Of a stretch of DNA of 64,000 bases, positions 307 to 37,983 are shown one piece after another; position 1 is the first letter of the stretch, and each line of letters opens with the position of its first letter. The notes below the pieces were generated by a model. The model saw only the letters and a program-made list of their open reading frames with translations. It was not told the origin of the DNA and made no database searches. The position numbers and the translations under genes are program-made. Source of the DNA: Podarcis gaigeae. Taxonomy: Eukaryota. The stretch lies in assembly GCA_964106915.2 (NCBI GenBank), contig OZ066915.1; one strand, written 5' to 3'.

Positions 307-1547
307 ATCTGCAAAAAAATTGAGTCAGAAGTCTTCCAGACTTGCACATTTTGAGAACATATTGCAACTTTCTGTTCTGTTAACTTTTCCTAGCGTGTGC
401 TCTGTAGTTTATGTTCTGTTTTATATTTGAGCCTGTTTGAATATCACTCCCCCTAACTTCTCCCCATTGACATACCCCCAACTGCTGTGGACTACAATTG
501 CATTCCCTTTCTGCTCATTTTCAGCCCAATCTCTTAACTGAGGAAAAACATGAGTGCAAGGTCTGTTCCCAGATTTCTCCCTTGAATAATCCATATGAAG
601 TGTGGATTGGGGTTGACAGGTCTTGTTGCTGAAGATATTTATATCAGCATTCTCACAAATTGATTTGAGAATCTTGTTAAGAAGCAATATATAAATTTAA
701 GGCTTATTTTTTAAAAACCTACTATAGAAAACTTGAGATGCAAAGAATGCAGGAGAAATTGAATGTTACACTATATGCATAGGAGACCTGCATTTATACT
801 TGTTTCCCTTCTATTTGGCAATTGTTGAAGCTTTGCTTTTATATTTAAGGATCATGCTACTGATTATAATTGGTCGTGAATTGCATTACCTAAATTGCTT
901 GAAAAGAAATGTCTTCGTAGCATGATTTGCAAGTGGCGTCCCAAGAGATTTAGACATTGTCTTTTCTGAAAAGGTAGACTCCTCAGTCTTTCATCTTAAT
1001 AATGAATTTAGCCACCAAAAATGAAAAACAGAGGAAAGGCAAGCATTGTCTCTGCATATCTCTGCAGGCATTGTCCTCATGTTTTGTAATCACAATAAGA
1101 CTGGTGGGATCCGCCTGTGCATTACAGTATGACTCAATCTGCAGGTTTCATTTATTAGTCAGTTAAAGCAAAGGAGGTGTGCTTGTAGTGACATAACATA
1201 TTTGCTGTATGTAGCAACACTGGTATGTGAAATGTTCAAGGAGAAGATTTTAGTGGCAGATAAATGGTAATTCAGTAGCCTAGCTTGGCGGGAATTCCCA
1301 GAACGTATGTGAAGCAGTAGTGGCCAGTGAGGAGAGCAGCTGCTGCACACCTTGTCTTCTGCCAGCAAAGTTTCTACAGTTACCAAGAGACAGAGAGGTG
1401 AGCCAGTGGGAAGGTTGGCACAGGCCTTCTGGCCACCTGGCCCCTGCCCTGTCAGTAAGTGGCAGCAGCTCTGCTGACAGGAGGCTGGGTGGGTGGTGTT
1501 GCCTCCCCCCCCTCCCAATGCTTTGCAGATACTGACTTTCCTCTTTA

Positions 1548-1875
1548 AAAGGTAAAGGGACCCCTGATCATTAGGTCCAGTCGCGGACGACTCTGGGGTT
1601 GCAACGCTCATCTCGCTTTATTGGCCAAGGGAGCTGGCGTACAGCTTCCGGGTCATGTGGCCAGCATGACTAAGCCACTTCTGGCAAACCAGAGCAGCGC
1701 ACGGAAACGCTGTTTACCTTCCTGCCGGAGTGGTACCTATTTATCTACTTGCACTTTGACATGCTTTCGAACTGGTAGGTTGGCAGGAGCATGGACCGAG
1801 CAACAGGAGCTCACCCCGTCACGGGGATTCAAACGTGGGTGGCACTGTGGGTTAAACCACAGAGCCTAGGGCTTG
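1548..1875 (-). mobile_element. Sauria SINE with inverted 5' head
   Basis: Minus-strand body 1548-1834 with (ACCTTT)-type tail, + strand head from ~1835, and 16-bp TSD ctgactttcctcttta at 1532-1547 and 1876-1891. Confidence 0.93.
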
Positions 1876-3409
1876 CTGACTTTCCTCTTTACTTTGGCTT
1901 AATTTTGTTGCTCATACAACAACTGGAGGCTCCTGGATTCTGAGAGGTGACATGTTCTTTCCCCTGCACACCAACTGTTGCTACCCTTGTGACGAAACAG
2001 AACTTTTCTGGCAGATTACTTTTAAGAGATTTAGGCTGAAGCACAGGTCCACCGCTCTCTCCACAAAGTGGGCCTTCAAGAAAACTAGTTAATGACTAGT
2101 TTAACCATCTGCATTAGAATGGCATTCTTATGGCATTCTGTGGCATTGCCTTGAGTTATAGCAAAACTGTTGGTAAGAATGATGGGGTATGGAGTGCTGC
2201 CTGTTGTTTGGAACCCGATTCATAAATCGATTTAAGGCTATCACCCCCTTCTTGATTTGCTGGTACTGCTTGCGGGGAACAACGGTGGCAGTACTCAGTG
2301 AGCGTGTGGCTACCTAAGGAAGAGTGAATGAATTTTACCCTATTCTCTCAATGAAAACCTGGCTTTGGAAGACAGCAGCCTGCTTGGGAGTAGGGCTACT
2401 GCGCATGAACACACATCTGTGTAATTGCTGCATAGGCGACTAGGTGCCCTTTACACTACAGTTTGTTGGCATTTCTTTTGGATCAGTACCCTCTGTTTGC
2501 TTTTATGAATTGAGGAGAGACTAATTTTTGAGCTTGTGGGTCAGGGGAGAGTGAATGTAACATTGTTTAGCTGGTGTTTTGTTAGTATTGTTTTATTGAA
2601 GATTTAGGAATTGTGTTGTTTAACCTGCAATTATGTATTATTTTGTCGTCGTCGTTTGCAGTGGAGGCAAAACATTTCTAAACATTTTCTCCTCAGAATC
2701 TCAAAGCCATACACTCTTTCCTGTCCTACAGACTTATAAGCTGTGGATCACTCAACAGATCCTAATGCAGTAGTATAGCCATCGCAAAGAAGTTTGGTTT
2801 CTGTGCTTGGCTGAATATGTCTCCACTTCTTTCACCAAACCTGGAAGATAGTCTCCCAAAACTCAGACATAAAGGAGGTTGACTGTGCTTAGTCTGGTGT
2901 GATGAACTCTGCACATGAGCAGAGATTATTATTTCACATTTTCAGGACTGAACCAAGCATTGCAGATATGTTCTGCTGTGCTCTGGTGTACCCTGGCTCA
3001 AATGAAAAACAAAACAAAACATTTTTTGTCTGTTGGTTGGAATACTTAGTTCTTTTAATTTAGAGAAAATTTGTTCTGGATAATGAATAATTAAATTGAT
3101 TTTTTGGGGGAGGAAAATTGTATGTAACTGGAAGCAAGTTTTACTCACATTTTAAAAGTTTTCAGTTTTTTTGCAATGGATGTGTAAACAATACATGAAT
3201 TCAGAAACTTACGTCATGTGGTATGATTTAATTTCTAAATAAGAGGTATGGAGTCAGTTTTGTCAGAAAATCATACTTAGGCCCTCTCTAAATGGAAGCT
3301 TTTTCCCTGCCCACAGATAAGAACAATTGTGTTGTTTGTTCTTTAGAGAGGAGGAGACAGTGACACTTTGGACATGTGCTATACAAATCATATTGTGATG
3401 AAAACAACA

Positions 3410-7313: not shown

Positions 7314-7685
7314 GTAAAGGTAAAGGACCTCTGACGGTTAAGTCCAGTCACAGGTGATTCTGGGGTTGCAGCGCTCATCTCGCTTTACAGGCCGAGGGAG
7401 CCGGCGTTTGTCCGCAGACAGTTTTTGCGGGTCATGCGGCCAGCATGACTAAGCCGCTTCTGGTGCAACAGAACACCGAAACCAGAGCAGTGCACGGAAA
7501 CCCTGTTTACCTTCCCACCGGAGCGGTACCTATTTATCTTCTTTCACTTTTTGGCATGCTTTCGAACTGCTGGAGCTGGAACCGAGCAATGGGAGCTCAC
7601 CCCATCGCAGGGATTCGAACTGCCGACCTTCTGTTTGGCAAGCCCAAGAGGCTCAGTGGTTTAGACCACAGTGCTCCTCGCGTGC
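7314..7685 (-). mobile_element. Sauria SINE, full length
   Basis: tRNA-like head with B box (gttcgaatccc on the minus strand), ACCTTT tail, 11-bp TSD aactcatttgc at 7303-7313 and 7686-7696. Confidence 0.95.
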
Positions 7686-32047: not shown

Positions 32048-32119
32048 TGATTCGAGCCGCCGACCTTCTGATCGGCAAACCCAAGGCTCAGTGGTTTAGA
32101 CCACAGCGCCACCCGTGTC
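32048..32119 (-). mobile_element. Sauria SINE 5' head fragment
   Basis: gattcgagccgccgaccttctgatcggcaa...gaccacagcgccacccgtgtc matches the head of the 7314-7685 copy. Confidence 0.85.
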
Positions 32120-36436: not shown

Positions 36437-36682
36437 GTAAAAGGCAAAGGGACTCCTGAACGTTAGGTCCAGTTGCGGACGACTCTGAGGTTGCAGCACT
36501 CATCCCGCTTTACAGGCCAATGGAGCCGGCATTTGTCCGCAGACAGTTTTTCTAGGTCATGTTGCCAGCATGACTAAGCCACTTCTGGCAAACCAGAGCA
36601 AAGCACGGAAACGCCATTTACCTTCCTGCTGGAGTGGTACCTATTTATCTACTTGCACTTTGATGTGCTTTCAAACTGCTAG
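36437..36682 (-). mobile_element. Sauria SINE, 5'-truncated
   Basis: Colinear with the other copies from the tail to tgctttcaaactgctag. Confidence 0.92.
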
Positions 36683-36777: not shown

Positions 36778-37148
36778 GTAAAGGTTAAAGGGACCCCTGA
36801 CAGTTAAGTCCAGTTGCGAATGACTCTGGGGTTGTGGCGCTCATCTCGCTTTACAGGCCAAGGGAGCCGATGTTTGTCTGCGGACAGTTTTTCCGGATCA
36901 TGTGGCCAGCATGACTAAGCCGCTTCTGGCACAACGGAACACCAACACCAGAGCAGCGCATGGAAACACCGTTTATCTTCCCGCTGGAGCGCTACCTATT
37001 TATCTACTTGCACTTCAATGTGCTTTCAAGCTGTTAGGTGGGCAGGAGCTGGGACTGAGCAATGGAAGCTCACCCCATCGTGGGGATTCGAACCACTGAC
37101 CTTCTGATCGGCAAGCCCAAGGCTCTGTGGTTTAGACCACAGCACCAC
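36778..37148 (-). mobile_element. Sauria SINE, near full length
   Basis: Tail through tRNA-like head, colinear with 7314-7685. Confidence 0.93.
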
Positions 37149-37983
37149 ACACAGAGAGAGATGCTTATACCAACCACTGGCATGCTTCACTGGGAGGATT
37201 GGTGAAGGAGTGACTGCATCCCTTGGATCAAAAAAAGTGAGTCATCCCTGCTATACACACTTTACCTGGGGAGTAAGTCCTGTGGAGCTTAATAGGACTT
37301 CTCTGATTTGATCTGTGTAGGCTCGTGCTGAGTATCAGCTGCTTCTCAGGAAGATGCAAGAGCAGCTTTCTGTCCATCCTCAAGTTGACAAAATGTCGCA
37401 AGCAGCAAGGGGCAGCTCCCTCCCTCGCATAGCTAAACGACAGTCCATTAAGATTAATGGCATGACTCAGACTGAGCACCAATAAACTGGAAGAGAAAGG
37501 AAAGCTGATTCCTTAGTGAAATGGAATTCAATTCTGTGTGGATCGGTTTTCAAGTAATATGCCCCTGAGAATGTTACAAAGCAAACGAGAGACTGTCAGA
37601 GTGACGCTAGTGGGGGGGGGGGGTTAAGCTCAGCATCTGGAGCCATCAAGAAGGGGTTGCTAAACAGACCTAGAACATCTGGCATTGCTGAAGCCAAATC
37701 AGGACCAAGGACTCCTAACTGTACGTCCAGCACTCTTGTTTCATTTCCATTTTATTCATGTCCCTCCCCCACCCCCACTGCTAGTATAAAGAAAGAAGCG
37801 GGAAGGGGAGACGGTGACCTCTTTAATAAGGTTAAAGCTTAGTCACATTATTCTGCCCATTCCTGCACATACTATTGGATTTTGGATTTTATAAAAAAAA
37901 ACATGGAATAAAATACTGCTTAGTATTTTAAATATTTGCAAGTTGCTCTGGAACCTTTGTTTCATAGAAAATGATGAATAAAC

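Follow-up and report, generated by a model that had tools for sequence, protein, structure and literature searches.

In L1 insertions made by twin priming, the two TSD copies enclose an inverted 5' piece followed by a 3' piece in normal orientation. About 70% of these cases have 2-5 bp of microhomology at the 5' junction; microhomology is also found at the inversion junction, and small deletions or duplications occur at the join. The rates of 5' inversion in the accessible text of Kojima 2010 (PMC2912911) are 30.9% for L1, 0.84% for SVA (4/477) and 1/5,554 for Alu, with denominators that differ from that of the Sauria SINE count reported here. In the available part of Yamaguchi 2014 (PMC4245944), 5' inversion is taken to be almost restricted to L1 in human cells. 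Apart from one 5'-inverted insert of Nimb-2_DR, a non-L1 LINE with TSDs of ~12 bp, in chicken DT40 cells, the paper describes no 5' inversions other than those of L1 in human cells, and neither ZfL2-1 nor L1 in chicken cells gave any. The inversion was proposed to require an overhang of 10-20 nt.

The tail (ACCTTT)n of the Sauria SINE is published in PMC6007223 and PMC13295347, and a Tn-TA target signature is given in the accessible text of both for Bov-B and the Sauria SINE. According to the available part of PMC13295347, the partner LINE has no ORF1. The words inversion, inverted, twin and microhomolog- are absent from that part, twin priming is found only in the reference list of the accessible PMC6007223, and the available portions of PMC4476161, PMC5389967, PMC13141329 and PMC13174262 mention it for L1 only. 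Our literature search, with subscription papers and supplements (e.g. Kojima Additional File 2) outside its scope, returned no report of a 5' inversion in the Sauria SINE, Bov-B or any RTE element. The surprise of twin priming by RTE machinery, which the original prediction did not know to be well documented, is lowered by the Alu/SVA (PMC2912911) and Nimb-2_DR (PMC4245944) inversions. The twin-priming mechanism is known; together with RTE machinery, a short Pol III RNA and a reptile it appears to be undescribed.

The locus analysed here lies at 1532..1891 of a 64,000-nt stretch of the Podarcis gaigeae genome (contig OZ066915.1), which is called the window. A direct repeat of 16 bp, CTGACTTTCCTCTTTA, is present at 1532-1547 and at 1876-1891. 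The two copies are 100% identical and were taken as the TSD, which encloses both parts of the element as had been predicted; the TSD score was 16, and no score of at least 10 was obtained in 150 mismatched flank pairs. The TSD copy at the 3' end of the SINE (1532..1547) reads TAAAGAGGAAAGTCAG in the sense of the element and starts with TA. The non-inverted body follows on the minus strand at 1548..1834, corresponds to consensus 65-351 with 94% identity and ends in the ACCTTT tail without poly(A); it would be the product of the first-strand cDNA. The tRNA-like head is found on the plus strand at 1833..1875 (consensus 4-46) and would be the product of the second-primer cDNA. When the head was taken as 1833-1879 with CTGA included, it was 96% identical to the consensus, so both strand assignments of the original prediction were recovered. 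Read in element sense, the copy has the order TSD, inverted head, body, ACCTTT tail, TSD. The consensus of 351 nt was built from 30 unselected full-length copies of this genome rather than taken from Repbase or SINEBase, and the focal copy differs from it at 22 sites, 15 of which are CpG changes.

A motif resembling a B box, GTTTGAATCC (consensus GTTCGAATCC), lies at 1825..1834 on the minus strand, separated from the A-box-like motif TGGCACTGTGG at 1840..1850 on the plus strand; we take both to be the Pol III motifs of these names. Since the two boxes are on opposite strands, the copy is predicted to be dead and without function. An Rfam search of the split copy gave no tRNA match. The insertion is real and old, and probably inert.

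At the inversion junction (1833..1834) the dinucleotide AC is common to body and head, as had been noted before. It is shared when the consensus of the 30 unselected copies is used, and 3 nt are shared with the consensus of the closest copies, which start with GGAACG, giving 2-3 nt of microhomology. The loss at the breakpoint depends on the assignment of CTGA, the first 4 bases of the TSD copy on the 5' side of the element (1876..1891). With CTGA as head, consensus 51-64 is lost (14 nt, TCAGAAGGTCGGCG), which agrees with the ~14 nt stated originally; with CTGA as target, 47-64 is lost, which is 18 nt. CTGA is present in both TSD copies and is therefore target DNA. The described overlap of head and TSD exists, but its bases stand opposite CCGA in the consensus (47-50), and the strict microhomology is 1 nt, weaker than claimed. 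Three of the 4 bases pair, and 4/4 only with a source RNA of the CTGA variant (4 with CpG tolerance). The 30 copies have CCGA in 11, CCAA in 6 and CTGA in 5 cases at these positions, with 8 other or not read. The putative second priming site is located here.

Two copies in the window had been used as intact heads for comparison: 7314-7685 belongs to a longer, older subfamily, and 32048-32119 is a head fragment only, on the minus strand and without a body. A closer intact comparator is found at ~36779-37152. A distance of ~100 bp separates this full-length copy from a 5'-truncated Sauria SINE at 36438-36682; both are on the minus strand, and a (GT)n(GA)n microsatellite adjoins them.

The family assignment rests on the tail of the focal copy, CCCTTTACCTTT, which is of the (ACCTTT)n type, on the consensus length of ~350 nt, on a tRNA-like head with presumed A and B boxes and on high copy number, with 41,243 exact matches of the tail motif genome-wide. 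Tail, length and copy number fit the Sauria SINE/Squam1 as it is described in the accessible text of PMC13295347, PMC6007223 and PMC10702118. The repeat content would by itself suggest a host of the lacertid type among the lizards.

We read the locus as one insertion of a Sauria SINE whose first 46 bases were inverted within one 16-bp TSD, likely by twin priming on the SINE RNA at insertion and likely by a Bov-B/RTE protein, with a probability of roughly 0.8.

The presence of the insertion in other sequenced genomes was examined in 8 of 24 public runs, which were compared with the focal locus (X19, X1, X2, X3, X4, X5, X22 and X15). Both outer junctions were present in contigs of X19, X1, X2, X4, X5 and X22, that is in six runs from five studies with five organism labels; X19 and X1 have the same label and come from two studies. 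In these six runs the left-flank contig reaches 1567-1572, which is 20-25 bases into the tail, and a second contig begins at 1851-1852, 24-25 bases within the plus-strand head, and continues into the right flank. The contig of X3 covers 1806-2300 and crosses the internal junction; its body side has 28 letters (31 required), 11 gap positions are of unseen placement, and the left contig of this run ends at 1538. X15 showed the left junction only; its right flank had no coverage and was uninformative. In the 8 runs, no contig bridged the internal junction with at least 31 letters on each side, and no contig or long read spanned the whole element. Because the inverted copy occurs in contigs of several organisms, it is genuine and predates their divergence.

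An assembly artefact is extremely unlikely: the outer junctions in six runs and the X3 contig, which runs from 1806 through the junction to the right flank, speak against it, and only the lack of a read or contig over the whole element speaks for it. The misassembly that the original prediction had named as a refutation was not borne out. Its second refuting condition, an un-inverted orthologue, was answered in part: no un-inverted allele of the focal insertion was seen among the contigs listed from the 8 runs, but an empty site was not seen among them either, nor an outgroup without the inversion.

The recurrence of such copies was followed by a genome scan, as had been proposed, for TSD-bounded 5' inversions and their junction microhomology. 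The first pattern, a tail on one strand and then a head on the other, gave 72 matches, all of which were extracted and aligned; when both anchors were required in normal orientation, 21,358 intact copies were obtained. The 72 matches comprised 46 second complete elements, 25 candidates that were examined for a TSD and one that was left unclassed. Firm copies, with a TSD score of at least 10, numbered 11 of the 72 (the focal locus, L077, L081, L085, L088, L098, L102, L116, L117, L124 and L132), and 14 of the 25 examined candidates had no firm TSD. Weaker scores of 7-8 were obtained for L092, L094 and L105; 16 of the 150 null pairs reached at least 7. From a second pattern with 84 matches, all extracted, the firm copies L178, L195 and L206 were added, the weakest being L195 with a TSD that is a TAT repeat. 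The firm total is 14, the focal copy and 13 other loci. The rate of 5' inversion is ~0.05%, or ~1 per 1,900 head-bearing copies (11 vs 21,358), and is a lower bound because copies without an anchor are missed.

Several matches were dropped from the counts: L210, a nested element (TSD score 14), L217 and L095, which matched in the tail repeat, L208 with an 8-bp TSD, and the abutting pieces without a TSD in L078, L093, L115, L182, L184, L221, L241 and L244. In L078, L093, L221, L241 and L244 the inverted and the non-inverted piece abut with no detectable TSD; these could be twin-primed inserts with a target deletion or decayed TSDs.

A subfamily that shares the focal junction was also considered and rejected. 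Among 40 scored candidates, the junction query matched at full length only at the focal locus. A third pattern gave 67 matches, most of which were Sauria copies lying within a different tRNA-like repeat, and the 37 that were aligned or read (L032, L041, L048, L051, L133-L145, L031-L060) contained no firm inversion besides the focal one. The same internal junction was observed at different loci in the pairs L088/L094 and L077/L117. Descent of each pair from one inverted master was not adopted, as the shared changes are almost all at CpG, with one non-CpG site per pair; recurrence is preferred over a common master here, but is not proven.

The marks of twin priming were then evaluated across the set. 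Microhomology was scored in 16 copies, 13 firm (L116 was excluded) and the 3 weaker ones. At the 5' junction, where the 3' end of the TSD was compared with the RNA in register, the strict mean was 2.9 nt, with at least 2 nt in 12/16 and none in 2/16, against a mean of 0.35 for random placement, which never exceeded 1.31 in 20,000 draws. The end of the TSD is set by the downstream copy, which has no contact with the inverted piece, and circularity is thereby avoided. The internal junction, for which no null was computed, showed microhomology in 9/16 and extra or unaligned bases in 7/16. The inverted piece ends at consensus 1-5 in 13/16, which is partly due to the design of the patterns. In L178 and L206 it starts at 23, and the missing 5' bases are gone, with none remaining beside the TSD.

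In another reading, the element was inserted in the ordinary way, and a template switch in replication or repair later turned the head around, with a loss of 14-18 nt, before the sampled species diverged. Such switches too leave microhomology, and all informative orthologues have the inversion, so that its timing is unbounded. Local inversions do exist in the family, as seen in seven flips of the head hairpin and in a 26-nt tail inversion in L273. One break, however, would have to fall exactly between the TSD and the start of the SINE, with the first bases lost, and it is where the TSD end meets the RNA that microhomology is in excess. The mirror control, a head followed by an inverted tail as in 3' inversions, gave 42 matches, of which 31 were complete or near-complete second elements and 11 had a partial antisense piece. 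An enclosing TSD with a score of at least 10 was found in none of the 42, compared with 11 of 72 for 5' inversions. A flip after insertion is therefore unlikely, and twin priming at insertion is preferred.

The breakpoints on both sides of the inversion were compared in 17 copies, the 16 above and L116, whose breakpoints were set by eye; those of L132 were taken from the start of the alignment. The gap or overlap had a median of 7 nt and was at most 20 nt in 12/17, and the positions were correlated (Spearman 0.66), with 0 of 100,000 permutations giving a value as low for the gap. The priming sites cluster near consensus 115-122 and 185-192, and one 8-nt window holds 6 of the 17 (P 0.0008). Unpaired RNA at the priming sites was not supported, as the paired probability was 0.67 vs 0.62 in the background. 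When a related intact head was folded, a hairpin was predicted at 46-63, and the stretch lost at the focal locus corresponds to its loop and 3' arm; a pause of the reverse transcriptase at this predicted hairpin is possible.

The coupling of the breakpoints bears on whether a single target received copies of two SINE RNAs, each started from a different DNA end, as a 3'-truncated antisense and a 5'-truncated sense piece. Two TSD-bounded inversions, L124 and L132, would fit this, as their pieces have large overlaps at the join (130 nt and 54 nt, respectively), and may have arisen from two RNA templates; the Bov-B-like L324 fits as well. For the set, the median of 7 nt and the Spearman value of 0.66 are what is expected of a single RNA, and the focal locus has a gap of 14-18 nt. 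Two templates are very unlikely at the focal locus and would in any case still mean priming from both DNA ends. The preferred reading remains twin priming on one SINE RNA.

The enzyme was addressed by the target signature. For comparison, 106 intact copies in the extracted loci were used, in which a firm TSD was present in 62 and, among these, a TA start in 46. All 14 firm inverted copies also have a TA start. A TT within -13..-9 was present in 11/14 inverted and 35/46 intact copies, with a background of 0.27, and the frequency of T at -11 was 0.86 and 0.78, respectively. The T peak lies at -10 to -12 in both; since the TA anchor was sought at most 3 nt from the TSD start, this peak is the independent part of the signature. 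At the focal locus the TT is at -10/-11 from the TSD start (1901..1902, minus strand), which is the Tn part of the published RTE signature. The median TSD was 13 bp in inverted and intact copies alike, and longer TSDs in the inverted copies were looked for and not found. The two sets did not differ in signature (Fisher P = 1.0) or in TSD length (Mann-Whitney P = 0.88). The L1-type site TT/RRRR occurred in 0/14 and poly(A) in 0/14 firm inverted copies, and neither was seen in the intact set. The inverted set thus has Tn-TA and TSDs of the length expected for RTE/Bov-B insertions (~10-15 bp), and its target signature is of the Bov-B/RTE type and not of L1.

The source of the protein in trans might instead be a lizard L1 or another non-RTE LINE. 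Many L1 families exist in lizards, 20 in Anolis according to the available text of PMC5389967, and the focal TSD of 16 bp fits the L1 peak at ~15 given in the accessible part of PMC4245944; the focal target, GT/AAAG, is one base off an L1 site. TSDs of at least 16 bp are, however, also found in 6/62 intact copies, the Tn-TA signature and TSD length are those of intact copies in a set where TT/RRRR and poly(A) are both absent (0/14 each), and a Bov-B-like copy, L332, has the same geometry in cis. Twin priming by L1 or another non-RTE LINE is quite unlikely, and the Bov-B/RTE protein is favoured.

The LINE in question was found with a 3' motif that has 15,389 matches in the genome, and its copies have (CAA)n at the 3' end. 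Of 30 copies, 4 had open frames of 397-499 codons within the extracted stretch, and the one copy tested contained Pfam RVT_1 (E 1.8e-40). This (CAA)n-tailed LINE with an RT domain and the SINE share 15/16 nt at the 3' end, a short match with an E of 0.026. We take the LINE to be Bov-B-like, a name that is presumed from its tail. A scan in a narrow window, which shows existence and not a rate, gave 14 matches in inverted orientation vs 5,425 in normal orientation. L332 was the only clean case of the 14 and is 5'-inverted within a perfect 12-bp TSD, with 2 nt of microhomology and an 8-nt overlap. In L324 (G000:C1:92217656-92217730), an 11-bp TSD encloses an antisense piece of 467 nt and a sense piece of 41 nt. 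Each of them begins at the 3' tail; possibly both ends of the DNA served as primers at the end of the RNA. The other 12 matches had no convincing TSD.

The proposal that RTE machinery can twin-prime even on a SINE RNA of ~350 nt is supported by the recurrence with different breakpoints, the marks of twin priming and the Bov-B/RTE target signature, and from these sequence features the involvement of RTE machinery is inferred. At the focal locus, the Bov-B endonuclease would nick at a TA that follows a T stretch at a distance of ~10 nt, and the reverse transcriptase would start on the SINE RNA at the ACCTTT tail and proceed to about position 65. A second nick, 16 nt off, would release a 3' overhang ending in TCAG. 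This overhang would pair with CCGA/CTGA at RNA 47-50 and prime a second cDNA to the 5' end of the RNA, and the two cDNA ends would be united via the 2-3 nt of microhomology, with the loss of 47/51-64.

The focal copy and its relatives share with L1 twin priming the arrangement of the two pieces between the TSD copies and, across the set, microhomology at the 5' junction. They differ from L1 in the 351-nt tRNA-derived element, a partner LINE that has no ORF1, the ACCTTT tail without poly(A), the Tn-TA target and the rate of ~0.05% vs 30.9%. As with the 5' inversions of Alu and SVA in the accessible text of PMC2912911, the RNA is that of a SINE, the inversion is made in trans and such copies are very rare; unlike those L1-driven, poly(A)-tailed elements, the Sauria SINE has 14 firm cases and an RTE signature. 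The TSDs of 10-16 bp satisfy the overhang proposed for Nimb-2_DR in the available part of PMC4245944, where the insert differs in being a single event in cultured cells, of another clade and in cis. Tail, target signature and shared 3' end are as described for Squam1 and Bov-B in the available parts of PMC13295347 and PMC6007223.

We lean towards the wider view that target-primed reverse transcription is in general capable of twin priming wherever the second nick leaves an overhang of at least 10 nt. In the germline of a reptile, the single-ORF Bov-B/RTE protein would then do so both in cis and in trans, with an RNA as short as ~350 nt, with neither ORF1p nor poly(A) and with preferred RNA sites at ~115-122 and 185-192, and the dozens of copies would be a natural record of both nicks and of the extent of the first cDNA. 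Inversions of a SINE with an RTE signature in a lizard would allow the candidate causes to be told apart, as ORF1p, poly(A), a long RNA and the mammalian host are removed and the ~13-nt overhang is kept. They would also mean that second-strand cleavage can precede the end of first-strand synthesis, even on a 350-nt template. RTE-dependent SINEs are also present in cattle, snakes, marsupials and plants, where the count is repeatable.

Three further observations were made in the extracted copies. L273 (G000:C19:21740137-21740475) is a full-length SINE with its final 26 nt inverted in place and a TSD score of 9, the best of the mirror matches. In L180, L196, L205, L212, L219, L223 and L232 the head hairpin (consensus 12-37) is rewritten and reads GGCTCTGTGGTTT in sense, often with a deletion; these seven are template-switch-like flips at one stem-loop. 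Among the 67 matches of the third pattern (e.g. L031, L034, L052, L054 and L055), most Sauria SINEs sit 15-25 nt past the B-box-like motif of the other tRNA-like repeat, often right after GTCCT, and the TTT of that motif, one turn upstream, possibly sets a target hot spot.
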